Source: Mycobacterium phage prophiGD15-1. From it: 64,000 bases of DNA. The stretch lies in the sequence record MW584180.1, one strand, 5' to 3'. The position numbers were made by a program, and so were the translations under genes. Position 1 is the stretch's first letter, and the number at the start of each line of letters is the position of its first letter. Under the pieces are notes generated by a model. The model was given only the letters and a program-made list of their open reading frames with translations, was not told where the DNA came from and searched no databases. Below, in pieces: positions 2,292 through 25,126 of the stretch.

Positions 2292-2564
2292 CTATCCCGC
2301 CGACTTCGCCTGAGCCTCTAAGTAGTAGGTCAGGATGGCGCGTAGGTCAGCTGAATTACCTCCTGCCGCTGCGCGGGCAATTGCCGCACGCTGCGGTTCT
2401 GCGCACCAGTTCGCGTATTCCATAGCCATCTTCCATGTCGGGAAGATGGACCCGCCGGTAATGCAACCCACTTTGGGCAAGTAATGTTTCACGACCCAAG
2501 GGAATCTGGGATGGGGCTTGTGAGATACCGTCCATCGCTCTGTGTCGCCGTAGCAATCAGTCAT
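2292..2564 (-). CDS. Hypothetical 90-aa protein. Its start is fused to junction repeat F.
   Basis: ORF with GAGG SD inside the conserved junction element. No recognisable domain. Confidence 0.45.
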   Translation of the reverse strand: MTDCYGDTERWTVSHKPHPRFPWVVKHYLPKVGCITGGSIFPTWKMAMEYANWCAEPQRAAIARAAAGGNSADLRAILTYYLEAQAKSAG

Positions 2565-2605
2565 CCCTCAATTATCCGCCGTTTCAACCGAAGTCGCGGT
2601 GTCTA
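2562..2605 (-). repeat. Gene-junction repeat, copy F (minus strand): TAGACACCGCGA-N17-GATAATTGAGG-g-ATG. It links the acyltransferase stop codon to the start of the 90-aa gene.
   Basis: The reverse complement of 2562-2605 reads ctagacaccgcgacttcggttgaaacggcggataattgagggatg. It matches the five plus-strand copies at 19014, 23616, 24224, 24771 and 25083. Confidence 0.8.
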
Positions 2606-3724
2606 GACGGCCACCACTTGCTTCCGTTTCTTCAACGCCAGAGTGCGTTTCTCAACAATGAACCAGCTCATTGCCGCCAGCGGCAGGGTTAGCAAGGTCG
2701 CCAAAACGAAGAAGGGGAACACCCCGAGTGTTCCGAGGCCGATGATGACGAGTAGCTGTTGGATGGGGAAGGCGTAGATGTACACCCCGTAGGAGAGGTC
2801 GTTGCGCAGGTTCGGGCGTTTGAGCATAGCGCCGGACGCTATGACGAGGTACGCCAAAGGGATTGCTGCCAACACCCGATAATTCGGTAGCAGCCCGGAG
2901 ATAAGCACCACTCCTGCCGCTAGTGCGATGAGCGACCAGCGGGCGGGAATCTTGTCCTGGTACTGGTAGATCAACGCCCCAGCCGCGAACATCACCGCGA
3001 ACCGGGTAACCATCTGGGGGATGGTCTGCATCGCGAACGCCGGATACCCGAACACCGCCGTCCCACACAGGGCGAGGACGAAAGCTACAGGGATAGTCGA
3101 GCGGTATTTCAGTAGTCCCGTGACACCGAGGATGGCGACGAAGATGTAGCAGCCCATCTCAAAGGTGAGGGTCCACAAAGACCCATTCCACACCCCTGGC
3201 CACGGCACATCCTGAGGTGTCCCACCAATACCGGGATAGAACGGGTTCAGCAGGCCGCCGTTGATGATGTAGGCGACCGCCGACATGGGGCTGGGCATCG
3301 TCCCATGCTTGATCCACACACTTACCGGTGCGATCACAAACGCGGTGATCAGTAGGCACACCCACAACCCGGGAAAGATCCGCAGGCAGCGGGCGGTGAA
3401 GTACGTCTTCGGATTGGGGTGCCGCATCCAACTGGACGTGATCAGAAACCCCGATACCGCGAAGAACCCATCCACCCCCACTTGCGAGAGCAATTGCGTG
3501 ATCGGCCTGGCGGGGATCTCATGGCCAGTCAGTGGCCAGGTGTGCCACAGGATCACAGAGGTGGCCAGGATTAGTCGCCATGCGTTGAGCGCGTTGTTGC
3601 GTGGGTCGAATACGCGTCCGAGCACTTCCCCTCCAGGGCTTGGTGATTGGACGATACGCCGCTTCAAGATCGCACGCAGGAGATTCCCAGCTTCGGGCAT
3701 GATTACTACGTTTGTAGTGATCAT
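2603..3724 (-). CDS. Acyltransferase family 3 (OafA/OatA-like integral membrane O-acyltransferase).
   Basis: 373 aa with ~10 predicted TM helices. The N-terminal motif NALNAWRLILATSVILWHTWPL is typical of acyltransferase_3 proteins. Confidence 0.75.
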   Translation of the reverse strand: MITTNVVIMPEAGNLLRAILKRRIVQSPSPGGEVLGRVFDPRNNALNAWRLILATSVILWHTWPLTGHEIPARPITQLLSQVGVDGFFAVSGFLITSSWMRHPNPKTYFTARCLRIFPGLWVCLLITAFVIAPVSVWIKHGTMPSPMSAVAYIINGGLLNPFYPGIGGTPQDVPWPGVWNGSLWTLTFEMGCYIFVAILGVTGLLKYRSTIPVAFVLALCGTAVFGYPAFAMQTIPQMVTRFAVMFAAGALIYQYQDKIPARWSLIALAAGVVLISGLLPNYRVLAAIPLAYLVIASGAMLKRPNLRNDLSYGVYIYAFPIQQLLVIIGLGTLGVFPFFVLATLLTLPLAAMSWFIVEKRTLALKKRKQVVAV

Positions 3725-3843
3725 GCGGATTCATCTGTCCGTAATGCCAACGACCCCTTCCATTCAACTAGCAGTCCGGTGTAACCTACGTCACACCACC
3801 TCGGGGGTGGCTCAAATCCCATATCGCACAAAGGCTTTCGGCG

Positions 3844-4572
3844 ATGCATGCTGCCCTCATCATCTTCACTATCACCACCATCGCATGGTCGCTGTGGGTA
3901 CGAAGACTCACGTGGCAATGCAAAATGGAAGTTGCCGCAAGCATTAACCTCGTTTTGCAGGCCGGGGCCGTGGTCTTAATGAGCCCGTGGGCATCCGAGG
4001 TGGTCGGCCTACGCCTGTACAGCCTGACGGGCCAGCACAACCTAGAGGACTTACTGGGCCACGACTTATATGTGATCGCTGCGAGCTCGGTGGTTTACCA
4101 CCTCATTTTGAGGCTCGATCAGCGCCAGATGGCTATCCGGTTTAAGACTCATGTCGAGCTGCCTGCGACGATATGCCTGCCCTTGATGTACGCCACGTTC
4201 ACCGCTGGCGCCGGTACTGAAATCTATCGGCGTGACTTTTTCCGGGTGCCGTGCGACTTCTGGCTGGCGTCCTACTGGTTCATCATGTGCGGCACCACCG
4301 CCTACCTGCTCGTCTACAGCGTTCTAGCACTGGTGCCCATGCTGCAAGCGCACGCCCGTCTCGCCCGCCTGTACCTCGTCGCCAGTGGGGCTGGAATAGG
4401 GGCTTGCGCGGCCCGGCTAGTCACCGCAGTGCTGCCCGATCACCTTCAGGACACGTTCACGGCTTCGATCATCGTGTGGTTTCTAGCCTGCTCATGTGGG
4501 GCGGCCTTCGCCCTCATCTCTGGCTATTCCTGGCTTCAGCGGCAGCGGGCCCTCATAGGGGCGGCCCCTTAG
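3844..4572 (+). CDS. Integral membrane protein of unknown function, ~6 TM helices.
   Basis: Hydrophobic segments run throughout the ORF. It is transcribed divergently from the acyltransferase operon and converges on the repressor gene. Confidence 0.55.
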   Translation: MHAALIIFTITTIAWSLWVRRLTWQCKMEVAASINLVLQAGAVVLMSPWASEVVGLRLYSLTGQHNLEDLLGHDLYVIAASSVVYHLILRLDQRQMAIRFKTHVELPATICLPLMYATFTAGAGTEIYRRDFFRVPCDFWLASYWFIMCGTTAYLLVYSVLALVPMLQAHARLARLYLVASGAGIGACAARLVTAVLPDHLQDTFTASIIVWFLACSCGAAFALISGYSWLQRQRALIGAAP

Positions 4573-4993
4573 GGTCATAGGCGTCACGATGAGGGAAAGA
4601 ACCGCCACCCATTCGCCGCTGGACCTCCGCGAGCAGTTCCATGTCGCTCGCATCACGGATGGACCCCGCTGTGCCGATTGGAGTGGGGGAACCGCCCGTG
4701 AGGATGTCGATAGCCGAACCTGGTTCCCATCGCAGTGCCGCGTCGAGCATGCGGAGAGTGGAGCCACGGGGGCGAGGCTTAGTCCCGTCGTTGTTTTCAA
4801 TGCGGGACTGAATCACATCCGACGGGCCGCCCGCCTCCTGCACCTCCGCCTGGCTCAACTTCAGTTCCTCACGCCGGGCACGAACCATTCGCCCGAGCCT
4901 CCCCCACTGCTCGCCTGTGGCCTTCGTCGCCTCCGTCATGCCCATAATCATCCGGAAAATATTCGGCAAACACAACCCGCGTTGGGCTAACAA
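4553..4993 (-). CDS. Putative immunity repressor (HTH XRE-family). The true start is probably an internal Met near 4939-4951.
   Basis: HTH segment RARREELKLSQAEVQEAGGPSDVIQSRIENN. Leftward gene, divergent from a cro-like HTH gene across a ~100-bp intergenic region. Confidence 0.55.
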   Translation of the reverse strand: MLAQRGLCLPNIFRMIMGMTEATKATGEQWGRLGRMVRARREELKLSQAEVQEAGGPSDVIQSRIENNDGTKPRPRGSTLRMLDAALRWEPGSAIDILTGGSPTPIGTAGSIRDASDMELLAEVQRRMGGGSFPHRDAYDPKGPPL

Positions 4994-5093
4994 CCGGCAT
5001 GTAATTCACGGCTTCACCTGCCAGAACCGGACTATTCGCACTGGTCTACAACATTTCCCGAACAAAGCCTTGTAATGCCCAGATATTTGCCGT
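4994..5093. promoter_or_regulatory. Divergent promoter/operator region of the immunity switch (repressor leftward, cro-like rightward).
   Basis: Non-coding gap between divergent HTH genes. It contains the partial palindrome cgtatgTTGGgacacatgCCAAcgg. Confidence 0.35.
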
Positions 5094-5426
5094 ATGTTGG
5101 GACACATGCCAACGGGTGCCAAACTCTCACAAGCCAGGGGTGATGACCGCCCGCTGCGGACCCCACCCCACGTGCCCATCGGCGCTCTACGTCTGGTCGC
5201 AGATATCACCCTCGATGAGCTCGCGGTAGGGATCGCCGAGATCTTGACCGTGAAGCAAGGGCGCGAGGCGACACCCCCGAGTCGAGGAACACTGTCCGCC
5301 ATTGAGTCCGGGCGGCGCGGCGCATCGGCAGAGCTCCTGTCTGCCATCGAGGAGTTCTTCCAACTGCCCGCCGGAACGATCACAACTACTTACCGCCCGC
5401 GCCCCAAGGCGCGATTCGCCGCTTAA
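5094..5426 (+). CDS. Cro-like HTH XRE-family regulator.
   Basis: HTH segment ITLDELAVGIAEILTVKQGREATPPSRGTLSAIESGRR. First rightward gene after the switch region. Confidence 0.5.
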   Translation: MLGHMPTGAKLSQARGDDRPLRTPPHVPIGALRLVADITLDELAVGIAEILTVKQGREATPPSRGTLSAIESGRRGASAELLSAIEEFFQLPAGTITTTYRPRPKARFAA

Positions 5427-5484
5427 CGAAAAGGCCCCCACCCGGTCCAGGGGTGAGGGCGCCGACAACCGAAAGAGGATCGGA

Positions 5485-6291
5485 ATGTCAGACATCCAGA
5501 ATATCAACACTGAGCTGGTCTTCATGGGAGACAACGGCGAGCCGTTCACAACGTCGATGGTGGTTGCCGCCGAAACCGAGAATGAGCATGCGTCGGTCAT
5601 AAAGACCGTGCGCAAGCACCTATCTGATCTAAATGAGGTCGGAAGGGTGCGATTTGAAATCCAACCCTTCGAAACTGCGGGTGGGACACAGCGCCGCGAG
5701 GTTGCCCAACTTGACGAGCCTGCCGCCGCACTGCTGATCACCAACCTCAAGGGCAGTCCGGTCGTGTGGGACTTCCGCAAGCGGCTGGTCGCTGGGTTCT
5801 ATGCCATGCGGCAAAAGCTCGCCGAGCGTTCCGCCGCGCACCCACTGCAGGGACCGGAACTACTAGCCGCAGCAGTACTCGAATCGCAGAAGATGATCGA
5901 GCAGCGCGACGCCCGCATTCACCAGCTGGAGCAGAAGGCGATCGAGGCGGCGCCGAAGGTGTCCTATGTAGACACCTATGTCACGGACGCCGACCTGCTG
6001 TCCGTCTCCACGGTTGCGTCCACGAATAGCGTCACTGAGAAGTGGCTACGAGAACTCCTGATCGCCAAGGACTGGATCTACAGCCAGCAGGACTCCAGAT
6101 GGTCAGAGAAGAAGCAACAGAAGGTCATCCGCAACCGGTACTCAGAGAAGGCCGACAAAAAGCGCTACTTCCGCCGCGTTGAGGTGCATGAGGCCCCCCG
6201 GTTCCGCGGCTCCGAGGTTATGCACACATTAAAGATCACGCCGCAGGGTGCCGAGGCCATCGCCCGGTTGATCGCGCGAGAGGCGGCATAG
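5485..6291 (+). CDS. Antirepressor-like protein (Rha/phage regulatory protein N-terminal domain).
   Basis: N-terminal ELVFMGDNGEPFTTSMVVAAETENEHASVIKTVRKHL resembles Phage_pRha. The ATG at 5485 has an AGAGGA SD. The ORF-track start at 5302 overlaps the cro-like gene. Confidence 0.55.
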   Translation: MSDIQNINTELVFMGDNGEPFTTSMVVAAETENEHASVIKTVRKHLSDLNEVGRVRFEIQPFETAGGTQRREVAQLDEPAAALLITNLKGSPVVWDFRKRLVAGFYAMRQKLAERSAAHPLQGPELLAAAVLESQKMIEQRDARIHQLEQKAIEAAPKVSYVDTYVTDADLLSVSTVASTNSVTEKWLRELLIAKDWIYSQQDSRWSEKKQQKVIRNRYSEKADKKRYFRRVEVHEAPRFRGSEVMHTLKITPQGAEAIARLIAREAA

Positions 6292-6626
6292 TGTCCGGGC
6301 CACCGGGCATCGCCCGGATATCAGCCCTCGGATGTAGTACCGGATCTGAGGATCGGATCGACAAGGTGATCCGCGCGGCGCACAAGGCGCTTGCCGAATC
6401 GGGCGTGTCGATGTCGCCACGCAAGGTCAGCAAGATCGTTCGAAGGTTCGGCATGAACGCCCGAAAGCGCGGCGTCAGCTTCCATGAGTACTTGTCAGCA
6501 GAGGCGAATCTATCACCGGCACAACAGCGTTACCTGGCGGCCAACCCTGACCTACAGATAGTCATCGCGTACGCCGATCCCACCGGAGAGACCGCAGTAA
6601 ACAACGTTATGCGAGGGAGAGGGTAG
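6291..6626 (+). CDS. Hypothetical protein.
   Basis: ORF in the rightward early operon. Its start overlaps the upstream stop. Confidence 0.4.
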   Translation: MSGPPGIARISALGCSTGSEDRIDKVIRAAHKALAESGVSMSPRKVSKIVRRFGMNARKRGVSFHEYLSAEANLSPAQQRYLAANPDLQIVIAYADPTGETAVNNVMRGRG

Positions 6627-7018
6627 TGAAGGGTCACGTGAAGCGCACACTGGAAGTGCTGGAGGCGCTGGGGTTCACGCGCGAAGACGACATGTTCGGG
6701 CGGCGCAAGTGGACTTTCCATCATTCATTCGCCCCCGACGAACAGCTGAAAGTATGGGAGGGCCAATCCGAGGCGGCATGCATAGCCGTGCAACAGAAGG
6801 CGCATGCCATTTCCGAAACCGGATCTTCCGGCCCATCCATGCCGAAAACCGTTGGGCGGCGCAAGCATCGCGTCAAAGCGGCGTCATCGGGGCCGACCAT
6901 CATGGAACTTGCTCGACAGGACCGTGAAGCCGCGCGCAAGGAACGGGACGCTGCACGGATCGAGGCGCGCCACGATCGCGAGATCAAGTCGCTAATGCAA
7001 CCCGGTTGGGGGAGGTGA
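6626..7018 (+). CDS. Hypothetical protein.
   Basis: ORF. GTG/ATG start overlaps the upstream stop. Confidence 0.4.
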   Translation: MKGHVKRTLEVLEALGFTREDDMFGRRKWTFHHSFAPDEQLKVWEGQSEAACIAVQQKAHAISETGSSGPSMPKTVGRRKHRVKAASSGPTIMELARQDREAARKERDAARIEARHDREIKSLMQPGWGR

Positions 7019-7022
7019 CGGC

Positions 7023-7265
7023 ATGAGCATCTCTGAATCCCGCCTACGGGAGATTGTTCGACAAGAGATAGAGCGGTCAGCCGGCGGTGCGCTACCCGCA
7101 GATGAGGCAGCCAAGTATTGCGGCATCTCGAGGTCAACACTCGATAGGCATCGGCAGGCTGGACACGTGCTGCCGCGTCACCCCGGAAGCCGACCCGTCT
7201 ACCTCATCTCTGAGCTCAACCGATTTCTTGAAGACCTGCCGTCAGAACCCAAGGGGGCGGCATGA
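7023..7265 (+). CDS. Excisionase-like / MerR-type HTH DNA-binding protein.
   Basis: AAKYCGISRSTLDRHRQAG is an Xis/AlpA-type helix-turn-helix. 80 aa. Confidence 0.45.
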   Translation: MSISESRLREIVRQEIERSAGGALPADEAAKYCGISRSTLDRHRQAGHVLPRHPGSRPVYLISELNRFLEDLPSEPKGAA

Positions 7266-7951
7266 CGACAAAGGGTGTGCCGACACCATTGGGTGTTCGC
7301 GTCCGCACGCTACGTAAACAGCGTGGGTGGAGTGCGCAGAAGTTGTCCGATGAGACTGGCGGCTCGGTAACCCGTTGCGTGATTGCGGATTTGGAACTAG
7401 GCCGTAAAAAAGATCTATCACTAACCGCGGGAGCGGCTATCGCCTCCGCGTTTGGGATGAGCGTAGATCAGCTGATCTACTACGCCGTACCTGCGGGGGC
7501 GTATGCGGCCGCGCGGGAAATCGTGGATACAAAGCTCCGACTGGAATCAATTCTCGCCCTCAAGGCTGTTGCTGTTTGGCCGAAAGAGCCGTGGCCGCCA
7601 CCCGATCCAGCTTCATCAGCATCAATAGCCGACGGCCTAGCCGAGTACGGACGCAGTGAAAGTGTGTCTAGTGACTGGCTTGCGGTTCCAGAAGCGCCCC
7701 TGAGGCGTATCAAGGCTCTCCTACAGCGCAGCGTTCGCGCACTGAATGAGGCAACCAGCGACGGCTCCACGGTGGGTAGGAACTACTGGAAGGGCGCGCA
7801 TGACAGCCTGCGACAAGTGCTACTTGGTCTCGGTCTATCACACATAGACATCGCCGCAGTGGAAGAAGATTCTTACCCCGCACGTCAGGCACAGCGACGC
7901 GCGTTCGATGAGTTGCGAGAACTAGACGAAGAGATCGGCCTGGAGCCATGA
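7262..7951 (+). CDS. HTH XRE-domain protein with a C-terminal domain of unknown function.
   Basis: VRVRTLRKQRGWSAQKLSDETGGSVTRCVIADLELGRKKDLSLTAGAAIASAFGMSVDQL. Confidence 0.5.
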   Translation: MTTKGVPTPLGVRVRTLRKQRGWSAQKLSDETGGSVTRCVIADLELGRKKDLSLTAGAAIASAFGMSVDQLIYYAVPAGAYAAAREIVDTKLRLESILALKAVAVWPKEPWPPPDPASSASIADGLAEYGRSESVSSDWLAVPEAPLRRIKALLQRSVRALNEATSDGSTVGRNYWKGAHDSLRQVLLGLGLSHIDIAAVEEDSYPARQAQRRAFDELRELDEEIGLEP

Positions 7952-8130
7952 AGGAATTTTCTGTGGATGATCAGGTTCGGCAGATGATCGAGCGCCTGAC
8001 ACGCGAGGCGGACCGCCTTGATGCGGACAGCTCTGCGCGGATAGCAGCGTTTCATCGCGACGAAACACGCCAGGCCAAGAAACGTAGAGAAGCCCATCTC
8101 ATTGCCGCCGGCCGACGAATACACAACTGA
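7948..8130 (+). CDS. Hypothetical small protein.
   Basis: 60-aa ORF coupled to the upstream gene. Confidence 0.3.
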   Translation: MKEFSVDDQVRQMIERLTREADRLDADSSARIAAFHRDETRQAKKRREAHLIAAGRRIHN

Positions 8131-8140
8131 ATAACCCCCG

Positions 8141-8183
8141 AACGCTGGGGCGGGACATCTTGGCGGAAGACCGCCCCAGCGCC
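8141..8183 (+). terminator. Stem-loop (CGCTGGGGCGG...CCGCCCCAGCG) downstream of the 7948-8130 gene. Possible terminator or attenuator.
   Basis: 11-bp perfect inverted repeat with a 19-nt loop. No clear U-tract, as is common in mycobacteria. Confidence 0.35.
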
Positions 8184-8211
8184 ACTGCAACCAACACCTT
8201 GGAGGTGTGGC

Positions 8212-8520
8212 GTGTTCAAGCATAGATCCATCACGGCGGTAGCCGTAACAGTCCTAGCGGTTTCATGTGCTCCACCAGCCCACGCGGACTCGGCTCAAGA
8301 CCTAGCCGAAAAGTACGGCATCTCGGTGTGCCGCAGTCTGGACGCTGATCCCACGATCGATGGGGTTCTCAACACCGGGATATCACTCACCAAAAAAGCG
8401 AACATCGACCCGTATGTAGCGGGACAAGTGTTGGCATACAGCGCCATCTGGTTTTGCCCCACGCACATCACTCTCTTGAAGCGGTTCGCCGACTACTACA
8501 AGGGAGGGCGAGAAGCATGA
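8212..8520 (+). CDS. Secreted DUF732-like protein with a signal peptide.
   Basis: N-terminal MFKHRSITAVAVTVLAVSCAPPAHA, then a two-Cys DUF732 pattern (…ISVC…FCP…). Confidence 0.5.
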   Translation: MFKHRSITAVAVTVLAVSCAPPAHADSAQDLAEKYGISVCRSLDADPTIDGVLNTGISLTKKANIDPYVAGQVLAYSAIWFCPTHITLLKRFADYYKGGREA

Positions 8521-8864
8521 ACCCCAGTGGTTTCCATCTTCATTGTGATGGTGCATATCCGTTGCCGCCGTTGAAGATTTACGGGCCTAGAGCTGCTGGA
8601 ACTCGCAACGTTCTTGACTGCATCGCAGAGATGGATTTGGAGGACATCGAGGAGATGTTGGCCTCTGTCCGTAGCCAACTACCCAACCCGGAGTCGGTGT
8701 TGTGGCGGTACGACAAGTGCGAGTTGGAGACCTACACGGCGCTAAGCGCTGAACTCAAGGTCAACCCACGGGCATTGAATGCCGAACTCAAGCACGGATG
8801 CGAATTCAACTGGGACTCAGATGGCCCCGAGTATTCCGAAGATGAAGAAGGGGAGGCGGCGTGA
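8517..8864 (+). CDS. Hypothetical protein.
   Basis: ORF. ATG overlaps the upstream TGA (ATGA). Confidence 0.4.
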   Translation: MNPSGFHLHCDGAYPLPPLKIYGPRAAGTRNVLDCIAEMDLEDIEEMLASVRSQLPNPESVLWRYDKCELETYTALSAELKVNPRALNAELKHGCEFNWDSDGPEYSEDEEGEAA

Positions 8865-9015
8865 TGTTCGCCCTACTCATAGCTGTATGCGCGATCGTCT
8901 TCCTTGCAGTCATTCTCGGCGGGCTTGGGCTTGGCGGGTGGGCGATGTGGGAGTGCTGGAAAACCGCACACCGTCCTGGCTATCAGTCCCCGCTAGTGCA
9001 CGGTTGGGAGGACTG

Positions 9016-9192
9016 ATGCGCGAGCTATTCACGTTCCCAATCTGCCACGCACACCAAGTGTTCCACCCATGTAGGCCGTGCGAGAGGGAGCAGGCCCGTA
9101 ACCAGGTCAAGAACTGGACCGCTATCGGGTGGCTGCTCACGTTCTCGGTGTTTTTCATGGTCGTTCTATGGTACTCGGCAGGTGGGCGATGA
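9016..9192 (+). CDS. Small membrane protein.
   Basis: C-terminal TM WTAIGWLLTFSVFFMVVLW. Confidence 0.3.
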   Translation: MRELFTFPICHAHQVFHPCRPCEREQARNQVKNWTAIGWLLTFSVFFMVVLWYSAGGR

Positions 9193-9419
9193 ACATCCGA
9201 GAACTAGGCGCCGTGGACCAGCTGTTCGCGGCAGCCAACGACCACCTTTCCGAAGCGGTGATCACCGTGAAGGAAATGGTTGATGCACATGGACCAGAAG
9301 AGGTGTGGGACAGATTCATCCGTGTGCTGACCGAACGTATTGAAGCAGGCGATTCGGATATCAAGACCATCGTCCATATTCACGCTACAGCGTTGATCCG
9401 GTTAGCGAGGCAGTCATGA
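9189..9419 (+). CDS. Hypothetical protein.
   Basis: ORF with an ATGA overlap start. Confidence 0.35.
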   Translation: MNIRELGAVDQLFAAANDHLSEAVITVKEMVDAHGPEEVWDRFIRVLTERIEAGDSDIKTIVHIHATALIRLARQS

Positions 9420-9561
9420 GCCTGTATGAATTCCACTGGCGCAATGGTGTATCCGAAGAGCTGTATGGCGATAGTGCTGCCGACGCTCTCGTCCGTGCTG
9501 GTTATGGAAGTGGCGCACTAGCCGCGCTCGACTACTACGAAGAGAAGCGGGGGGCGTCACA

Positions 9562-9949: not shown

Positions 9950-10216
9950 GTGGGTTGAGTGATGCGCAGCGCGGGGCGCTCAAGAGTTGCTTGGAAGAGA
10001 TCTATTTCGGGTACGGCGAGAAGGATTGGGAACGCCTCGCTGGTGAAGCTACTGATCGGATCGCGTCTGCGGTGAGGACGGCGTCATGAGCGACTACATC
10101 AAGGATGTTCTTAAAGACGCTATCGAGGAAGAGCTTTCGTTGGGTGGTGATGCGGGGACTGTGATGGCCCGTATCGGTGAGGTGTTGTCAGAAGAGGGCT
10201 ACAGGGTGGTGGCGTT

Positions 10217-17766: not shown

Positions 17767-18080
17767 GTGACGAACCTTCGGACGCACAGAAGCTCATAGC
17801 GGAAGTGATAGCCACGCACCGCGCTTTATTCGATGGAGAGGCTTGCGACGCCTGCGACTGGAAGTTCACCAATGAGTATTACGGGCACGACGAACACGTT
17901 GCCGTAGAGGTGGATAAAGCCCTTGGAGGACTCACGCGGAAGCGGCGGATTGACTATCAATGGCGCGAGACGGGCGAGGTGCATCACGACCGATTCTTTG
18001 AAGGGAAGCCCGTCCCCAAGACGCGGCTGCACTATGTGCAGCAGTCCCGTTGGGCGTCTGGCTGGACGGTGACCGAATGA
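17763..18080 (+). CDS. Hypothetical protein.
   Basis: ORF. Confidence 0.35.
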   Translation: MSDEPSDAQKLIAEVIATHRALFDGEACDACDWKFTNEYYGHDEHVAVEVDKALGGLTRKRRIDYQWRETGEVHHDRFFEGKPVPKTRLHYVQQSRWASGWTVTE

Positions 18081-18194
18081 GCTACATCGACATGTTCGGA
18101 ATCGAGTATGGCGGCTGCGGTGACTGTGATTGTGATCATGGTTGTCAGGGCGTTGGCTCCGACGATGAGGCCAAGTTCTACCCCGAGGCTTCCG

Positions 18195-18383
18195 ATGACT
18201 GACTACCAAGACACCGGTAGCCGACGGAAACCTACGGCATACACCGAAACGGGGGCCGCTGAGCGGGTGTGCCCGGACTGTAGTGCCCCAGAAGGACATC
18301 CCTGTAGATGGATAGCCATGGATGGGCAGGGGGATTTAGGGAAACCAAGGCATTGGCCGCATGAGACACGTTGGAGGAAATGA
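18195..18383 (+). CDS. Small zinc-ribbon-like protein.
   Basis: CPDCSAPEGHPC. Confidence 0.3.
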   Translation: MTDYQDTGSRRKPTAYTETGAAERVCPDCSAPEGHPCRWIAMDGQGDLGKPRHWPHETRWRK

Positions 18384-18384
18384 A

Positions 18385-18702
18385 ATGCGTGACGATATTC
18401 ACCCTGGACCGCGCATCATCTCCGGTAAAGCGGAACTACCCTGCCTGAAACCGGAGCCCTGGATGATCCAGGCGTCCTGCGCCACCGCAGACCCGGACGC
18501 GTTTTTCCCCCATAAGCGTGGCGACGGTGATAGCGAGTCGATCACCGTGCAGTACCAATACGCCAAGAAGATATGCCGCTCATGCCCAGTCAGGGTTGAG
18601 TGTTTGACCTACGCGATCGTCAACGACGAACGCGACGGGATCTACGGCGGCTTAGGCCCTCGTGAGCGCGCGAAGATCATGCGTAACAGGGAGGCAAGCT
18701 GA
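18385..18702 (+). CDS. whiB: WhiB-family transcription regulator.
   Basis: Four conserved Cys (C…C..C…..C: CATADPDAFFP…CRSCPVRVECL) and a G(I/V)(W/Y)GG turn (GIYGG). Confidence 0.75.
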   Translation: MRDDIHPGPRIISGKAELPCLKPEPWMIQASCATADPDAFFPHKRGDGDSESITVQYQYAKKICRSCPVRVECLTYAIVNDERDGIYGGLGPRERAKIMRNREAS

Positions 18703-19016
18703 TGCCGCACTCAAGCCCTACCGACTGGATAGCCGGTGGAAGTGTCGCCGCAGACATCGTTGGATGCCTCACCGGTCTGGTCGCGGACCTGTCCTGGCAG
18801 GATAAAGCGGCGTGCCGTGGACTCCCTACGGAGTGGTGGTTCCCGGACCAAGGCGGCAGCCGGGAATGTAAGCGGGCCAAGGAAATCTGCCACGGCTGCC
18901 CAGTCAAACTCCAATGCCTCCAATTCGCGATAGAGGTACACGACCAGCACGGAATTTACGGGGAGCTGTCATTGAAGGACAGGCGCAGGTGGAACCAGGA
19001 AAGGAAAGCGGGCTAG
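18702..19016 (+). CDS. whiB: Second WhiB-family regulator, a paralog in tandem.
   Basis: CRGLPTEWWFP…CKRAKEICHGCPVKLQCL…GIYGE. Confidence 0.7.
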   Translation: MPHSSPTDWIAGGSVAADIVGCLTGLVADLSWQDKAACRGLPTEWWFPDQGGSRECKRAKEICHGCPVKLQCLQFAIEVHDQHGIYGELSLKDRRRWNQERKAG

Positions 19017-19057
19017 ACACCGCGAATGTCAGTGTATCGGAGGATAATTGAGGTATG
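19014..19057 (+). repeat. Gene-junction repeat, copy A.
   Basis: TAGACACCGCGAatgtcagtgtatcggagGATAATTGAGGTATG. Confidence 0.8.
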
Positions 19058-19486
19058 GGAATGACTGATTTACAGAACGTCCACGAGCGCATTGCGGGCA
19101 AGCGTATAGCCTCCGTCGAGGCCGACGGTACGAGGCTGGTGCTAAACGATGGCACTGTGCTGCATCTCTACATGTCAGACAGTGACTGTTGTGCTTCCGC
19201 CGATGGGAAGTGGGTAATCCAGCCGGACGCGCTGGAGGCGATTATTACCGGCGTTCAGGTTACACCAGACGCGGATCGGAGCGGTTATGACGGTGACGGA
19301 AATACCAACTACGCCACCATCTCAATTCTGCACAACCAGAACCCCATTGCCCTTGCAGACTGCTATGCCAATGACGGTAATGGGGGCTACTACTTCTCCG
19401 TGCTATCCCTCCGTGTTGTCATGCCCGGTGACGAAGATGACGTCAAGGTGGAAGTCCTGAACTCTGACTCCTCGTCCAGCGATTGA
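19055..19486 (+). CDS. Hypothetical protein.
   Basis: Start is embedded in the junction repeat. Confidence 0.45.
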   Translation: MGMTDLQNVHERIAGKRIASVEADGTRLVLNDGTVLHLYMSDSDCCASADGKWVIQPDALEAIITGVQVTPDADRSGYDGDGNTNYATISILHNQNPIALADCYANDGNGGYYFSVLSLRVVMPGDEDDVKVEVLNSDSSSSD

Positions 19487-19500
19487 GGAGGTAGTGAGAG

Positions 19501-19794
19501 TTGAGTGCTGAACCGCTGCAATGGGACCACAACCCAGATATTCGCGTCCCAAAGAATGGGTGCCGCGCCGAAGTTGACGGCGGTGCTTACATTCTGTTCA
19601 AGTACGGCGCTAGTTCGTGGCAGGTGCTTTTCAGCACTGGGTGGCATATACCCGATGAGGTCTATCTCGGCGACAGCGAATCAGACGCACTAGCCGCAGC
19701 AGAAGCTCACCATATCGCCATTAGGCAGAGAACGATCTACCGTCGAACGGGCAGGAGTGACGATGCCGCAGCGGATTCAGCGGAAGCGCACTAG
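19501..19794 (+). CDS. Hypothetical protein.
   Basis: ORF with a TTG/GTG-type start. Confidence 0.35.
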   Translation: MSAEPLQWDHNPDIRVPKNGCRAEVDGGAYILFKYGASSWQVLFSTGWHIPDEVYLGDSESDALAAAEAHHIAIRQRTIYRRTGRSDDAAADSAEAH

Positions 19795-20131
19795 GGGTTG
19801 GCGAATGCCCGAGGGTGCTATCTACGTCGGGCGACCGAGCCAATGGGGCAACCCGTTTCGACCTGTTCTCGTCGGTGGCGAGTGGCTCATAGAGGATGAC
19901 AACGGCGTCCAGTACGACGGGTTCGGGAGCAAGGTAAGCGCTATCGGTCGGTGCGTTGCGCTCTACCGGTCGCTCGATATGACGTTCATGACAGACGCAG
20001 ACCTAGACGAGTTCGTCGCGCCGCTACGGGGCCACGATCTCGCCTGCTGGTGCTCTCTCGATTCCCCTTGTCATGCAGACGTGCTGCTTGAACTCGCTAA
20101 CGATCCACCGTCGAACGGAGAAGCTTTGTGA
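19757..20131 (+). CDS. DUF4326-family protein.
   Basis: RKRTRGWRMPEGAIYVGRPSQWGNPF…GHDLACWC…CHADVLLE is characteristic of DUF4326, common in mycobacteriophages. Confidence 0.55.
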   Translation: MTMPQRIQRKRTRGWRMPEGAIYVGRPSQWGNPFRPVLVGGEWLIEDDNGVQYDGFGSKVSAIGRCVALYRSLDMTFMTDADLDEFVAPLRGHDLACWCSLDSPCHADVLLELANDPPSNGEAL

Positions 20132-20270
20132 GCGAACTACGTAGAGCACTGTTGGTAGCCAAAGCGGAAGCGGCACTTATCCCCACCGGCCGACGGGCTG
20201 AGCTCGACCGCAGATTCACTGCGGCCCAGAAGGCGGCACAGGCTCACGCCACGTACAGGAGGTCCGCTTA

Positions 20271-20948
20271 GTGTCCGTCTCCGACAGCTTCTTTCTCGAT
20301 AAAGGCTCCCAACACAAGCTCCGTGAAGAGTTGGCCAGCATCCCCCGCATGATCGGGGAGCTGTCCGTCACCCTCACCCGCCAGGCTCGCATCCAGAGGC
20401 CAGGGTTGAGTATGTCCCGAAGGCCCAAGCCTGAGTCTCAGGTCCCCATCCATATCGGGGCACACAACGCCGCTGACGTACTGCACAACTGCCTAGGTAC
20501 GTGGGTGAGGCTGGTATGCGAACAACGAGCGATCGTGTGGGATAAGGGCAACGACATCATCACGCTGGCCAAGTGGCTGCGAGTCAACATGATCGCCCTA
20601 GCCCTCACTGAAGGTTCAGAAGAAGCGTACGAGGACATCAAAGCCGCTATCGATGACTGCTGGCGACAGATAGACATCCCCGCCGACGATGACATTGTGA
20701 TCGACCGAGGACGAGTACATGAAGCGAACAAACACATCGTCACCGCCGACACCATCGAACCTATCGCCCGCCGGATAGGGGAGATGGGAAAGAAGCTGAA
20801 TGCGCAGCGGGTGCACTCGCTTACCCGTGGTGGGCATCTGCGTCCAGTCTCTAGCGACCCGGACACGGGTAAGAAGTTCTACCGACTGGGGGATGTGCTG
20901 CACGCGCACAACAACTGCGAGAAACGAGACCGAAAGAAGGGCGCATGA
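20271..20948 (+). CDS. Hypothetical protein.
   Basis: 225-aa ORF. Confidence 0.4.
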   Translation: MSVSDSFFLDKGSQHKLREELASIPRMIGELSVTLTRQARIQRPGLSMSRRPKPESQVPIHIGAHNAADVLHNCLGTWVRLVCEQRAIVWDKGNDIITLAKWLRVNMIALALTEGSEEAYEDIKAAIDDCWRQIDIPADDDIVIDRGRVHEANKHIVTADTIEPIARRIGEMGKKLNAQRVHSLTRGGHLRPVSSDPDTGKKFYRLGDVLHAHNNCEKRDRKKGA

Positions 20949-21145
20949 GCGACGGACGCGGCATGTACATGAAGTACCGAGTTGAGCGGATGGACGGCAA
21001 GGATATGGGGCCATGTTTCATCCTTGAATACAAGAAGGATCGCCACGCGCGGGTGGCACTTGCGGCGTATGCCGACGCGTGCGCCGAGGACAATCCTGGA
21101 CTAGCCCAAGACCTGCGGTGGACGCTAGAGGAGCTGGAGCGGTGA
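20945..21145 (+). CDS. Hypothetical small protein.
   Basis: ORF. Confidence 0.35.
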   Translation: MSDGRGMYMKYRVERMDGKDMGPCFILEYKKDRHARVALAAYADACAEDNPGLAQDLRWTLEELER

Positions 21146-21291
21146 GGGTCGGGACCTGTCCGAAGTGTAAGCACTTGGAAGGTCGACACATCCAGTCCAC
21201 GTACTTCGATGAAGAGACGTGGACTGGCCGATTCGTGTACGCCAGGTGCGATTGTGGCTGCACCCACTACGTCGTAGTGGAGCCGGTCTAG
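21142..21291 (+). CDS. Small Cys-rich (zinc-ribbon-like) protein.
   Basis: CPKCKH…CDCGC. Confidence 0.3.
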   Translation: MRVGTCPKCKHLEGRHIQSTYFDEETWTGRFVYARCDCGCTHYVVVEPV

Positions 21292-21440
21292 TGTCGGCCC
21301 TCGACTGTGAGGGGAGTGACCTAGATCCTGGTTGGTGCTGCACCCATAGATGCGATTTCAGGGACCCTAGGCATCCGCACTGCTGGCAGAACTGTGACGA
21401 AGAAGATTGCGCCGCCCCTGAGTGTGATTGGGTTGAGTAG
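21291..21440 (+). CDS. Small Cys-rich protein.
   Basis: CEGSD…WCCTHRCDF…CWQNCDEEDC. Confidence 0.3.
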   Translation: MSALDCEGSDLDPGWCCTHRCDFRDPRHPHCWQNCDEEDCAAPECDWVE

Positions 21441-21639
21441 TTCACGCTGGTCGCACATACTGCGCAGGCCAAGGTATCTCACGCATCTTCCACGCCTGCG
21501 TAGGGTTGGCCGCAGTGACCCAAACGATAGGCATATCGCGTCCGGGAACTACCCGAGTGGTAGTTAGACACTCAACTTCACCACCGGTTGCGGTGGTTAC
21601 GTAGACACGCATTCTAGCTTCAATACCCATACGTCTAGC

Positions 21640-21721
21640 GTCGGTCTTGCCAAAAGATCTGTAAAGAAAAATCTATGCGACACCGCGTTATGGCAGTGCC
21701 TTATGGCAAGCCGCAAAGGGA
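21640..21721 (+). promoter_or_regulatory. AT-richest non-coding stretch in the window, carrying direct repeats TTATGGCA-N5-TTATGGCA. Candidate internal promoter/operator for the downstream genes.
   Basis: ttgccaaaagatctgtaaagaaaaatctatgcgacaccgcgTTATGGCAgtgccTTATGGCAagccgc sits just upstream of the 21722 start. It is the only ~290-bp gene-free gap in the early region. Confidence 0.3.
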
Positions 21722-21982
21722 GTGAAACTGATGAACGTATGGATAGTCTCTGCGCATCGGTCCTGGGGCGACAGGATTGAATACCACGGACACAGGGGGG
21801 ATACCCACCGCTGGATGGGCTGGACGCGACCCATACCCAAGGTGGGGGAAGTTATTGAAACTGAATTGAAGTCCGGACGGGCGGCCCGCTTTCGGATAGT
21901 TGAGGTTGAGCGCGGGTACGGCACGGATGATATGTGGTGGGCCACAACCTCGGACGCGCCCATTTATGGAGCGACGACGTAA
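21722..21982 (+). CDS. Hypothetical protein.
   Basis: ORF with GGGAG SD. Confidence 0.4.
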   Translation: MKLMNVWIVSAHRSWGDRIEYHGHRGDTHRWMGWTRPIPKVGEVIETELKSGRAARFRIVEVERGYGTDDMWWATTSDAPIYGATT

Positions 21983-22028
21983 CTGCCTCCACCTTGCATA
22001 AGTATATCGGTTCTGATATATTAATGAG

Positions 22029-22361
22029 GTGACCGACGAAAAGCCTCTCCGCTGGATAGGTACCTCACTTGAGGACCTACGGGACTTCCCCGAAGCGGCA
22101 CGGCAGGACGCCGGTTACCAACTGGATAGGGTTCAGCACGGCCTAGAGCCCCACGACTGGAAGCCAATGCCAACAGTCGGCAAGGGCTGCCGCGAGATAC
22201 GCGTACGCACCGAAGACGGCGCGTACCGTGTGTTCTACGTAGCCACCCTTGGGGATGTGGTGTTCGTACTGCACAGCTTCGTCAAGAAGTCACAGAAGAC
22301 TTCCCAGCAAGACATCAACACCGGTAAGGCTCGATACAAGAAAGCGCAGGAGGAACTATGA
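22029..22361 (+). CDS. RelE/ParE-superfamily toxin of the HigB / phage Gp49-like (DUF891) type.
   Basis: LEDLRDFPEAARQDAGYQLDRVQHG…GKGCREIRVRTEDGAYRVFYVATLGDVVFVLHSFVKKSQKTSQQDINTGKARYK matches the Gp49-like/HigB pattern. Confidence 0.6.
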   Translation: MTDEKPLRWIGTSLEDLRDFPEAARQDAGYQLDRVQHGLEPHDWKPMPTVGKGCREIRVRTEDGAYRVFYVATLGDVVFVLHSFVKKSQKTSQQDINTGKARYKKAQEEL

Positions 22362-22609
22362 GCGTATGGGACGACATCGCCGACACCCCGCGCGAAGCGG
22401 AGAACCTTCGCGTGCGGTCTGAGCTGATGATGGCAATCGAAAAGAAGATCAACGAGCGCGAATGGACCCAGGTCCAGGCCGCCGAAGCACTCGGACTGAC
22501 CCAGCCTCGGGTGTCGGATCTGCTGCGCGGCAAGATCTCCAAGTTCTCCTTGGATGCTCTCGTGGACATCGCTTCCGGGTTGGATGTGCACGTGAAGGTG
22601 TGCGTCTGA
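22358..22609 (+). CDS. HTH XRE-family antitoxin (HigA-like), downstream of and overlapping the toxin gene.
   Basis: WTQVQAAEALGLTQPRVSDLLRGKISKFSLDALVDIA. The toxin-then-antitoxin order is typical of higBA. Confidence 0.6.
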   Translation: MSVWDDIADTPREAENLRVRSELMMAIEKKINEREWTQVQAAEALGLTQPRVSDLLRGKISKFSLDALVDIASGLDVHVKVCV

Positions 22610-22694
22610 TTGCGACACGCCGACCAGGGGATATACCCCTTAACCGCTGTCAAGTAGTAAACTGCGCATAGGCGCGACTTACACCCATTCTTTT

Positions 22695-22730
22695 AAACCC
22701 CCATCGACATTTGTTCGGTGGGGGTTTTTC
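22695..22730 (+). terminator. Rho-independent terminator (AAACCCCCA-loop-TGGGGGTTT followed by TTTCT). It may function in both directions.
   Basis: 9-bp perfect stem, 15-nt loop and a T-tract, immediately after the TA pair. Confidence 0.6.
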
Positions 22731-22880
22731 TATGCCCAAACGGAGGTTCCCTTATGCCTCTGTCTCGTGTCCGCTGCTGCATCCCCTGTGGCCGTATCCG
22801 CTACGCCCCCTGCTCTGCAGGGTGTCGAGTAGATCCCGAGAACGACCCAACAAGCTGGACAGAACAGGTGCCGCCGAGCG

Positions 22881-23105
22881 ATGAAGCTGAGTAAGGAAGC
22901 GCGCAATACCGTCGCCGACTGCATCAGTAAGGGCATCCACCTGACGCTGGACGTTCAGTGCGATGGCGAGCCGATGGGCGGCTGGTGCGATAAGTGCGAG
23001 AAACCGTCGATGGTCGAAGTGCAACTGCGTGGCATCTCCACTGACGCCGTGTACGACCTCGGACCCGCCGTCGTATGTGCAAACCATGAGGCTGGCGATG
23101 ATTGA
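22881..23105 (+). CDS. Hypothetical small protein.
   Basis: ORF. Confidence 0.35.
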   Translation: MKLSKEARNTVADCISKGIHLTLDVQCDGEPMGGWCDKCEKPSMVEVQLRGISTDAVYDLGPAVVCANHEAGDD

Positions 23106-23349
23106 ATGTCTTGGTTGCGGCTCGACGGTGGGGCAAGACGGCGATTGCCCGCGCCCCGAACACTGCGGAAACTGCCCACCTTGGGACTGTGACGAATGCG
23201 GCCAGCAGTGCTCGATCAACACCCCTTGCGGGTGCTGGATTTTCCTTGAAGGCATGAACCTCGCCGACATCAAGGCGGTACTCGCCGCAGCCGATCTGAG
23301 TGTCAATGTGGAGGTGCCGCCATGCTCGACAGATTCTTCGCGGCACTAG
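23098..23349 (+). CDS. Cys-rich small protein.
   Basis: CLGCGSTVGQDGDCPRPEHCGNCPPWDCDECGQQC. Confidence 0.35.
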   Translation: MIECLGCGSTVGQDGDCPRPEHCGNCPPWDCDECGQQCSINTPCGCWIFLEGMNLADIKAVLAAADLSVNVEVPPCSTDSSRH

Positions 23350-23618
23350 CCGGCGCCATGGCCCCTCCACTCGTGGCCATGTGTGAGCGCATCGCGGATA
23401 AGAAGATCCCTGACGACACCGTGCCGAAGTTCATGGACGGCCTGCTGGATATCGCCCGCGACGGCGTTGACCGCGCCGTGAGTGTGGTGCAGACGTCCGC
23501 TGACGGTATTGCCGGTAGCGCGGAAGCTGAACTAGGTCAGCTCGGCTCGGAGATTAGGGGAGTGGTCAAAGCGGCCAACCCCATAGATATTCTCGGCAGC
23601 CTGTTCGGGCGACGCTAG
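23322..23618 (+). CDS. Hypothetical protein.
   Basis: ORF. Its stop codon is the TAG of junction repeat B. Confidence 0.4.
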   Translation: MLDRFFAALAGAMAPPLVAMCERIADKKIPDDTVPKFMDGLLDIARDGVDRAVSVVQTSADGIAGSAEAELGQLGSEIRGVVKAANPIDILGSLFGRR

Positions 23619-23659
23619 ACACCGCTGATGTCGCTGCACCGCAGTAAAATTGAGGTATG
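23616..23659 (+). repeat. Gene-junction repeat, copy B.
   Basis: TAGACACCGCTGAtgtcgctgcaccgcagTAAAATTGAGGTATG. Confidence 0.8.
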
Positions 23660-23833
23660 AGCATTGAGACCGAGCGGCAGTTGAATCGCCGCTGCATTGA
23701 GCTGCAAGACGAGATAATCCGCTGGGGCGAGAAGGCGCAGTGGGCGCTTGAGCAAGATGACACCGGATGGTGGGGCGATGTCCTCGGTGGCATCGTCAAG
23801 CGCGGCAAGCTGATGGCAGAGAAGGGCACCTAA
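23657..23833 (+). CDS. Hypothetical 58-aa protein.
   Basis: Start lies in the junction repeat. Confidence 0.4.
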   Translation: MSIETERQLNRRCIELQDEIIRWGEKAQWALEQDDTGWWGDVLGGIVKRGKLMAEKGT

Positions 23834-23980
23834 CGATGTGCCCTCCACGCTGTCAGAACTGCATCCATCCGCAGCATGACCACGAAGGCTGGTTTGGTCG
23901 CTGCACCCGCGACGACTGCGAATGTAAGGCAATGCAGGACTGACTTGCCCCTACAGCCTCTCCGTTCTACTATCGAACAC

Positions 23981-24226
23981 ATGTTCGACAAGGTGTCATA
24001 CCGTATCGAAGGTGATGGACCCGTCACAGCGGTACTCACTTACCAAAACCGGGAGTACCGGCACACCTCCCGAACCATGTGGCTCGGACACGAAGACGGC
24101 ATGCCCCAAGGCTCCATCCAACTCGACGAGCATGTGTGGGCGCGGCTACAGCGCATCAACGGAACCATAGAAGCCACCATCACCGACTCTAAGACTGGTG
24201 AAAGCTACACCCTCACACCTGAATAG
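23981..24226 (+). CDS. Hypothetical protein. The ORF track's longer form starts at 23876.
   Basis: Its stop is the TAG of junction repeat C. A 35-aa Cys-rich ORF (23836-23943) may also be a gene. Confidence 0.3.
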   Translation: MFDKVSYRIEGDGPVTAVLTYQNREYRHTSRTMWLGHEDGMPQGSIQLDEHVWARLQRINGTIEATITDSKTGESYTLTPE

Positions 24227-24267
24227 ACACCGCGACTTACGCTGTAGCTCGGTAAAATTGAGGTATG
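24224..24267 (+). repeat. Gene-junction repeat, copy C.
   Basis: TAGACACCGCGActtacgctgtagctcggTAAAATTGAGGTATG. Confidence 0.8.
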
Positions 24268-24501
24268 GATGATCCCGAGATTGAAGTCGCTGAGGCGGTG
24301 TGTAAACGGCACAACTGGGACGGCATGATGTTTTGCGCTTGCACTGCCGCTGCTCGTGAAGCTTTGAAGCGAGTGGGCGCCGATCTGCAATCCGTCGATG
24401 GCGTCTTAGGTCTGCTTCATCATCGAGGGCTTGTTGACTCCGAGCGCAATAGAGCTGATGTGAAAGCTGCCCTCGAAATCGTACAGAGGTACACCCGATG
24501 A
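24265..24501 (+). CDS. Hypothetical protein.
   Basis: Start lies in the junction repeat. Confidence 0.4.
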   Translation: MDDPEIEVAEAVCKRHNWDGMMFCACTAAAREALKRVGADLQSVDGVLGLLHHRGLVDSERNRADVKAALEIVQRYTR

Positions 24502-24773
24502 CTGAACCATCTCAAGCCCATATAGACCGGGCACGTGAACTCGGCCTCTCTTTCGATCCTTCTGATACATCGGATGAAGAGTTAAGCCGTGCTATCGCAA
24601 CGTATGAGCGGGTTTACATCGAGGCGATGACCGAGAATGCTGGTAGGGACACTGATACTCCTACTGAGCGCCGCAAGATGCTGGGCGTATGGACTCAGCG
24701 CGATGAAGAAGAGGCCAAGGAAGCCGCTGAACGGCGGCGGATGTTCGGCTCCCGACGAATCCCACCCGCCTAG
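24498..24773 (+). CDS. Hypothetical protein.
   Basis: Stop is the TAG of repeat D. Confidence 0.4.
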   Translation: MTEPSQAHIDRARELGLSFDPSDTSDEELSRAIATYERVYIEAMTENAGRDTDTPTERRKMLGVWTQRDEEEAKEAAERRRMFGSRRIPPA

Positions 24774-24815
24774 ACACCGCTGATTCCTCTGAAACGTCGG
24801 ATAATTGAAGGTATG
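24771..24815 (+). repeat. Gene-junction repeat, copy D.
   Basis: TAGACACCGCTGAttcctctgaaacgtcgGATAATTGAAGGTATG. Confidence 0.8.
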
Positions 24816-25085
24816 GACATCACCGAGAAGCCATTGACCAACCTGGCTGACACAATACATACAGCCCTGATCGGACACAGGCCGGACGACTACGCCTGCT
24901 ACTACAAGCAGCTTTTCAATGTGTTTGGAGCGCCCGGCATCCCGAACACCTACGAGGCGGTACTCAAGCGTTACGGCAGGGTAATCCATCGAGAGACATT
25001 CTGGCGGCGCAAGAGCGCAGAGAAGCAATGCATCGCATGGAAGCGCTTGTATGACGCCGTCGTACTACCACCTCCACAGTCCTAG
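24813..25085 (+). CDS. Hypothetical protein.
   Basis: Flanked by repeats D and E. Confidence 0.4.
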   Translation: MDITEKPLTNLADTIHTALIGHRPDDYACYYKQLFNVFGAPGIPNTYEAVLKRYGRVIHRETFWRRKSAEKQCIAWKRLYDAVVLPPPQS

Positions 25086-25126
25086 ACACCGCTGATCCCG
25101 TTGAAACGCGGGATAATTGAGGTATG
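25083..25126 (+). repeat. Gene-junction repeat, copy E.
   Basis: TAGACACCGCTGAtcccgttgaaacgcggGATAATTGAGGTATG. Confidence 0.8.

Follow-up and report, generated by a model that had tools for sequence, protein, structure and literature searches.

Intergenic repeats in a Mycobacterium abscessus MabA prophage are very probably promoters of leaderless accessory genes expressed in the lysogen

From our analysis of 64,000 nucleotides of Mycobacterium phage prophiGD15-1 (MW584180.1; this whole stretch is referred to as the window), a family of six short repeats, each bridging the stop codon of one accessory gene and the start codon of the next, was identified very probably as a family of promoters. 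Each repeat would drive, in the lysogen, a leaderless mRNA that begins on the A of the ATG of the downstream gene. The window is 100% identical, at 1-26000 and 44000-59300, to the M. abscessus prophage prophiGD17-2 (MW584161; cluster MabA1), which in turn has the same length (61,797 bp), number of open reading frames (ORFs) and attB site as prophiATCC19977-1, located at 1754373-1816169 of M. abscessus ATCC 19977. Positions in the ATCC 19977 chromosome are given below as genome positions, and all others are positions in the window unless another prophage is named.

A pattern search of the window found all six copies where a first-pass annotation, made from the sequence alone, had placed them, five on the plus strand and one on the minus strand. 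The consensus of the repeat is TAGACACCGC-N19-(G/T)A(T/A)AATTGA(A)GG(T/G)ATG, with a unit length of 44 bp. The composite TAGACACCGC-N19-KAWAATTGA matched six times without mismatch against 0.01 matches expected from 100 dinucleotide-preserving shuffles, and the left and right halves were each enriched on their own in the window. A seventh exact TAGACACCGC, at 63575-63584 on the minus strand, is without the right half and is probably a chance match. When the copies were aligned with 40-nt flanks, the likeness among them was confined to the segment from TAG to ATG, with none within the coding sequences. According to the GenBank annotation of MW584161, the upstream genes (gp45, gp59, gp61, gp63, gp64, and gp4) all end with the TAG of a copy and the downstream genes (gp46, gp60, gp62, gp64, gp65, and gp3, respectively) all begin with its ATG, in agreement with the first-pass description of a sharply bounded stop-to-start element. 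The genes flanking the copies had also been described as unrelated, and the proteins encoded downstream are indeed mutually unrelated, belonging to different PHROG families or to no PHROG. The possibility that the repeats are merely the conserved ends of paralogous genes was therefore ruled out, because the similarity ends at TAG and ATG and the PHROGs differ.

Transcription start sites (TSSs) were taken from the differential RNA sequencing (dRNA-seq) table of ATCC 19977 (Dataset S1 of Miranda-CasoLuengo et al., 2016; PMC4974804); the six start sites concerned have been public since 2016, in this supplementary table only. We predicted the six positions from the ATG coordinates of the window before looking them up, and all six are listed at the exact position. 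The 5′ untranslated region (5′UTR) is 0 wherever that column is filled, the printed -50..+2 strings contain the repeat, and the motif-driven genes appear in the authors’ ‘Leaderless mRNA transcripts’ sheet (PMC4974804). The single minus-strand copy (2562..2605) lies between gp4, encoding the glycopeptidolipid (GPL) O-acetyltransferase MAB_1725c (stop TAG 2605-2603), and gp3, encoding the 90-aa MAB_4998c; its -10 hexamer GATAAT is at 2576-2571, and its TSS, the A of the ATG at 2564, is genome position 1756936(-) with 497 reads. On the plus strand, the copy at 19014..19057 separates the WhiB gene gp45 (stop 19014-19016) from gp46 (DUF7448), with GATAAT at 19043-19048 and the TSS at 19055 (genome 1773427; 165.5 reads; 5′UTR 0; MAB_1757). 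The two copies with the most reads both carry TAAAAT: the copy at 23616..23659, between gp59 and gp60, has its hexamer at 23645-23650 and its TSS at 23657 (genome 1778029; 1887.5 reads; 5′UTR 0; MAB_1766), and the copy at 24224..24267, between gp61 and gp62, has its hexamer at 24253-24258 and its TSS at 24265 (genome 1778637; 1808 reads; 5′UTR 0; MAB_1768). The copy at 24771..24815, between gp63 and gp64, is 45 nt long owing to one additional A ahead of GG, with GATAAT at 24800-24805 and the TSS at 24813 (genome 1779185; 508 reads; 5′UTR 0; MAB_1770). The last one, at 25083..25126 between gp64 and gp65, has GATAAT at 25112-25117 and the TSS at 25124 (genome 1779496; 266 reads; 5′UTR 0; MAB_1771). 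Two further copies at the right end of the prophage, upstream of gp110 (MAB_1812c) and gp113 (MAB_1815), fall beyond the end of the window because of an insertion at 59301-64000; these too have leaderless TSSs, with 733.5 and 736 reads, respectively. A degenerate copy comprising the right half only (GATAGTTGAAGTATG; 2282..2296, minus strand) coincides with a secondary TSS at 2284 (genome 1756656(-); 143.5 reads). This TSS opens a 3-codon leaderless ORF (MQI and a stop codon; region 2273-2296), 88 nt upstream of gp2, which may be a tiny leaderless upstream ORF or merely part of a long leader of gp2.

Expression in the lysogen changes abruptly across the repeats, from about 1–2 reads per kilobase per million mapped reads (RPKM) in RNA sequencing (RNA-seq) upstream to 12–94 RPKM downstream. 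The step is from 0.9 RPKM (MAB_1765) to 46 RPKM (MAB_1766) at the 23616 copy and from 2.1 RPKM (MAB_1756) to 13.9 RPKM (MAB_1757) at the 19014 copy. The genes MAB_1767-1770 reach 90, 75, 94, and 81 RPKM, and peptides were detected for all of them, including four for MAB_1768, which follows the 24224 copy. Ribosome footprints are present on all six downstream genes, with ribosome profiling (Ribo-seq) values of 2–52 RPKM among the motif-driven genes; MAB_4998c, which follows the 2562..2605 copy, has 54 RPKM in RNA-seq and 52 RPKM in Ribo-seq. The structural genes of the phage are at 0–0.4 RPKM, so that lysogens rather than induced cells account for the signal. Downstream of the last copy in the window, RNA-seq drops from 12 RPKM (MAB_1771) to 0.4 RPKM (MAB_1774), where the convergent gene gp68 lies; a terminator scan found no terminator-like site at the ends of the motif-driven units. 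The features by which a leaderless promoter is recognized, that is, a 5′ end on the ATG, a -10 hexamer ending 7–8 nt upstream and translation without a Shine–Dalgarno sequence, are all present. MAB_1766 (23657) and MAB_1770 (24813) also appear in the differential-expression lists of the same study (PMC4974804), with log fold changes of 3.5 and 1.3, probably for the artificial-sputum condition, judging by their place in the file; MAB_1757, MAB_1768, MAB_1812c, and MAB_1815 were searched for in these lists and are absent.

In five copies, the -10 hexamer (G/T)A(T/A)AAT spans -12 to -7; in the 24771 copy, it lies one base farther upstream. The last T of this nAnnnT hexamer is thus at -7 (-8 in one copy), and the same holds for 31 of 35 leaderless promoters of the host (table in PMC4974804). 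Copies with TAAAAT have 1887.5, 1808, and 733.5 reads and copies with GATAAT 165.5–508 reads, as would be expected if the hexamer is the -10 element. Judging from the sequence, these promoters are probably of the housekeeping, SigA-like, -10-only type, in which RNA polymerase would initiate at the ATG and the leaderless mRNA would be translated by the leaderless route common in mycobacteria. The segment TGAGG(T/G) would then serve as the discriminator that separates the -10 from the start, not as a ribosome-binding site. In the first-pass annotation, GAGG was taken as the Shine–Dalgarno sequence, and the repeat was thought to preserve translational coupling between neighboring genes; neither proposal survived. 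Only 1 nt separates GAGG from the ATG, compared with mostly 6–8 nt between the Shine–Dalgarno core and the start in 41 other genes of the phage, and because the TSS is on the ATG, GAGG lies upstream of the transcript. Coupling is contradicted by the starts on the ATG and by the genes directly upstream of two copies, which are almost silent while those downstream are expressed. The stop-to-start look would arise because AT-rich signals in a GC-rich genome place a stop codon in every frame (TAG at 1-3, TAA at 32-34 or TGA at 11-13, and TGA at 36-38 of the repeat), so that the element also closes the upstream ORF.

Upstream of the -10, a conserved box, TAGACACCGC, spans -41 to -32 at a constant distance of 19 nt; a part for this box in promoter function is an inference, and so is the behavior of the promoters in lytic growth. 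A copy that has TAGACCCCGC and a diverged spacer nevertheless reaches 736 reads, so that TAGACACCGC may be dispensable for basal activity. Within the spacer, T-28, TG at -22/-21, A-19, C-17, and G-13 are conserved in at least 88% of the copies, and the other positions vary. The promoters create lysogen-expressed, moron-like islands in the prophage, comprising gp46 onward and gp60-gp65, which both lie in the nominal early-lytic region, and gp3 beside the integrase gene.

Several points weigh against this interpretation. The TSS evidence consists of values from a published table, it comes from a single strain in a single growth condition, and the identity of prophiGD17-2 with the ATCC 19977 prophage was deduced from the published Table 1 together with the promoter strings in the TSS table. 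ATCC 19977 is able to induce spontaneously; nevertheless, the silence of the structural genes speaks against a lytic origin of the signal. There is no canonical -35-like hexamer 16–18 nt upstream of the -10, and a promoter that depends on the -10 only leaves the near-invariance of TAGACACCGC and of the conserved spacer positions unexplained. The -35-like TAGACA is 23 nt from the -10, which is too distant for a -35 element. A MerR-like overlong-spacer arrangement was also rejected, since the 23-nt spacing is too long and neither gp61 nor gp62 has a Pfam match to a helix-turn-helix domain. To our knowledge, a 23-nt spacer exceeds that of any overlong-spacer promoter.

We then examined the distribution of the repeat beyond the window. 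The element is present in 16 of 50,697 phage records, all of them M. abscessus (pro)phages of MabA1, A2, or A3; the pattern search across phages suggested in the first-pass annotation thus placed the repeat in relatives as well. A pattern scan of IMG/VR gave about 100 copies with identical spacing, all in contigs from isolate genomes, and its matches with other spacings are chance matches. In the TSS table of ATCC 19977 (the part up to 3.78 Mb), TAGACACCGC is found in prophage promoters only. A scan of one genome per species gave only a chance match in a Pyrinomonadaceae metagenome-assembled genome; it shows little beyond the absence of the exact motif from the other species scanned, and the M. 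abscessus representative may be masked. In approximately 69 distinct contexts from related prophages, an ORF of 35 codons or more nearly always begins at the ATG, and in approximately 19 of these the in-frame ORF that ends at the TAG has no more than 26 codons. The element thus goes with the start codon rather than with the stop codon. Infrequent variants read TGAACACCGC or TAGACACCGG. Two divergent copies with TGA replacing TAG (TGAACACCGC, TGAACCCCGC) were seen in prophiGD91-2 at 19415-19458 and 30954-30998; the two-base swap from TAG to TGA retains a stop codon, and at the 30954-30998 copy the upstream gene runs through the box and ends at the TGA of AATTGA. The motif string was not found in the mycobacterial papers searched, and the papers on MabA prophages that were consulted do not mention the repeat.

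The repeats had originally been read as cassette-boundary linkers that promote short-homology exchange of neighboring genes while the stop, Shine–Dalgarno sequence, and start are kept for coupling, a reading that we now consider rather unlikely. Its observational part stood up well, in that the repeat is kept while the flanking genes differ and the breakpoints lie at the repeat edges. The WhiB protein upstream of the 19014 copy is 96, 98, and 56% identical in three other MabA prophages, and the proteins encoded after the repeat are unrelated, aligning at only 25–28%; the gene after the acetyltransferase is likewise unrelated in relatives behind the same repeat. In 161 pairs of copies with only the left flanks homologous, homology stops at repeat positions 10–15 or 38–54, and in 14 pairs with only the right flanks homologous, it begins at -6 to 0 in 13; the variable middle shows 90% identity or more in 227 pairs with both flanks unrelated. 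Such patterns would be expected from exchange inside the boxes. The phage also encodes an ERF-family annealing protein (gp27). However, the coupling mechanism fails for the reasons given above, mosaic joints in phages usually lie at gene borders, so that breakpoints would be expected at the edges of whatever conserved element lies between genes, and the pair counts are phylogenetically non-independent and drawn from repeat-bearing junctions only. Possibly, a role in recombination is a side effect at most. A different explanation places the function of the conserved parts in long lytic RNAs, with the spacer hairpin serving as a terminator, a processing or stabilizing site, or a translational operator. 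The first-pass annotation noted that the spacer often forms a small hairpin, and this holds strongly for one of the six copies in the window (25083; TCCCGT-TGAAAC-GCGGGA, -10.3 kcal/mol, z = -4.6), the hairpin being weak or absent in the other five. Across the family, the arms of the dyad (positions 14-19 / 26-31) pair in 72% of cells, where shuffles give 66% and slid controls no more than 60%, its covariation score is 0.265 against 0.172, compensatory CG/GC/UA changes occur at three pairs, the sense strand has 25 G-U cells against 7 A-C cells, and z < -2 was reached in the folding of about 14 of 34 variants, all of which would suit a structured RNA. Nevertheless, the hairpin lies upstream of the TSS and is therefore missing from the lysogenic mRNAs, and about half of the variants lack the 6-bp dyad, among them most TAAAAT copies and with these the two strongest promoters. 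The hairpin precedes ATAATTGAGG and is not followed by a T-run, and an intrinsic terminator was rejected on this ground; the terminator scan flagged no copy, Rfam 15 gave no match at an E-value up to 1 in window 1-32000, and RNA-seq does not drop across the internal copies in MAB_1767-1770. The dyad is a facultative feature upstream of the transcript, and an RNA-level function of the repeat appears improbable.

It is possible, if doubtful, that the promoters are regulated, TAGACACCGC or the dyad being the site of a dedicated factor, encoded by the phage or the host, that coordinates a regulon of accessory genes. Such a factor would account for a box that stays invariant at a constant 19 nt across about 100 copies with varying spacers, that occurs only in prophage promoters in the TSS table up to 3.78 Mb, and that belongs to a family confined to MabA; the TAGACA placed 23 nt before the -10, and the dyad that separates the two, also bear a loose resemblance to factor-dependent promoters with overlong spacers. 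Against it stand the 736 reads of the TAGACCCCGC copy with its diverged spacer and the 143.5 reads of the right-half-only copy, the response of only MAB_1766 and MAB_1770, which is not a coordinated one, and the immunity repressors, which are 25% identical between subclusters while the box is unchanged. No candidate factor was found, and the genes after the TAAAAT copies are not conserved, for which reason gp62-like proteins were rejected as a conserved autoregulator downstream of these copies. An elaborated version, in which TAGACACCGC and the dyad are the site of a MabA-wide or host factor that jointly switches the accessory genes on, with both boxes doubling as swap homology in a promoter-defined cassette system, we regard as unlikely. 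The left box could also be compared with the stoperators of cluster A and MabJ phages, at which, in cluster A, the immunity repressor blocks read-through from upstream; the cluster A sites are numerous, and one of them overlaps the early lytic promoter. Like them, the box is short and asymmetric, it is found where genes are separated by short gaps, and it always points the same way relative to transcription; in addition, the upstream genes that were measured are silent in the lysogen. However, a genome has only 6–8 copies, each joined to a -10 at a constant distance, and transcription starts at them rather than being blocked; the lone box is not enriched (7 other near-matches against 3.7 expected). 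An operator of the immunity repressor was rejected because the box is identical in MabA1 and in MabA2/A3, whose repressors share 25% identity, and because the repressor-cro intergenic region has no copy. A stoperator-like function is therefore very improbable.

The closest known analog of the repeat family is the extended start-associated sequence (ESAS) of cluster K mycobacteriophages, described together with the start-associated sequence (SAS) by Pope et al. (2011; PMC3203893) and in the Adephagia study of 2024 (PMC11373665). The ESAS is now read as a SigA-like promoter with some copies expressed in the lysogen, the promoters being predicted only (PMC11373665). Both are intergenic motifs of about 45 bp (46–47 bp for the ESAS, with 7–19 copies) in the non-structural region, in one orientation, directly before the ATG starts of unrelated gene families and specific to one cluster. 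The ESAS contains an imperfect inverted repeat of 15–17 bp, and the MabA repeat has an imperfect 6-bp dyad of modest support. In the ESAS, the -35 and -10 are 17–18 bp apart and precede an SAS in which AGGAG has normal spacing, whereas the MabA repeat has no canonical -35, leader, or SAS. The sequences are unlike, and the starts at the MabA repeat have been mapped experimentally. The 13-bp SAS of cluster K (GGGATAGGAGCCC, located 3–9 bp before starts in that cluster) is not present in the window, where one match at 2 mismatches, inside the transposon, compares with 1.9 expected by chance.

Leaderless promoters with only a -10 element were reportedly described in mycobacteria by Cortes and colleagues in 2013 and by Shell and colleagues in 2015. 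The MabA repeats resemble these in the TSS on the A of the ATG, a TANNNT hexamer with its last T at -7/-8, the lack of a Shine–Dalgarno sequence, and the presence of footprints and peptides. Unlike host leaderless promoters, which share the -10 alone, the MabA copies share approximately 25 more positions, including the 10-bp box at a constant distance, and are confined to one prophage cluster. The genes that follow them recall the morons of temperate phages, said to have been described by Juhala, Hendrix, and colleagues in 2000, in being autonomously transcribed accessory genes, expressed in the lysogen beside silent neighbors and varying in content among relatives. Classical morons, however, have individual promoters and a terminator, whereas MabA prophages reuse one promoter family, no terminator was found by the scan, and several units stand head to tail. 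The linker or boundary sequences of modular phage evolution, attributed to Botstein in 1980 and to Clark and colleagues in 2001 for HK620, are likewise short conserved sequences at joints where neighboring modules vary. The MabA repeat differs from them in having a demonstrated promoter function, which alone is enough to explain its conservation.

A few observations concern other genes of the prophage. The acetyltransferase gene gp4 (2603-3724, minus strand) corresponds to MAB_1725c, and the promoter copy lies directly after its stop codon; MAB_1725c is a functional O-acetyltransferase of GPL that is expressed in lysogens (PMC10400925). For the toxin gene gp54, the GTG start codon at 22029 is itself a leaderless TSS with 978 reads (region 22014-22031), and its Ribo-seq value of 1177 RPKM is the highest noticed among prophage genes; its promoter has an extended -10 (TGATATATT) and is separate from the repeat family. 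The immunity repressor gene gp6 (4553-4993, minus strand) is annotated from 4993, and a leaderless TSS is mapped at 4939 (MAB_1727c), where the homologue in prophiGD102-1 begins at the methionine; the first 18 annotated codons of gp6 are probably untranslated. Similarly, gp61 is annotated from 23876 and MAB_1767 begins at 23981, the PHROG match spanning residues 36-116 only. The interval before 23981 contains an unannotated Cys-rich ORF of 35 codons (MCPPRCQNCIHPQHDHEGWFGRCTRDDCECKAMQD; 23836-23943) directly after gp60. The transposon that the window carries past base 59300 is absent from MW584161 and represents, at 59301-64000, an insertion in the region of gp108 (HNH endonuclease) relative to prophiGD17-2. 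Among its products are a Mu-type transposase with Mu-transpos_C and rve domains (60054-62216) and a TniB-like ATPase (62204-63253), and the insertion matches the transposase region of prophiGD20-1.

In essence, the repeat family is a useful annotation and not a new type of element. It flags small genes of unknown function that are made in the lysogen, including some in a supposedly early-lytic region, and it offers a simple sequence rule for predicting lysogenic expression, with about 100 copies before dozens of unrelated genes in public prophage contigs. The repeat is also a portable 44-bp leaderless promoter of naturally graded strength and provides an experimentally anchored comparison for the unexplained ESAS and SAS motifs of cluster K. 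The motif-driven genes are natural candidates for prophage-conferred phage defence or altered host physiology, which bears on phage therapy.

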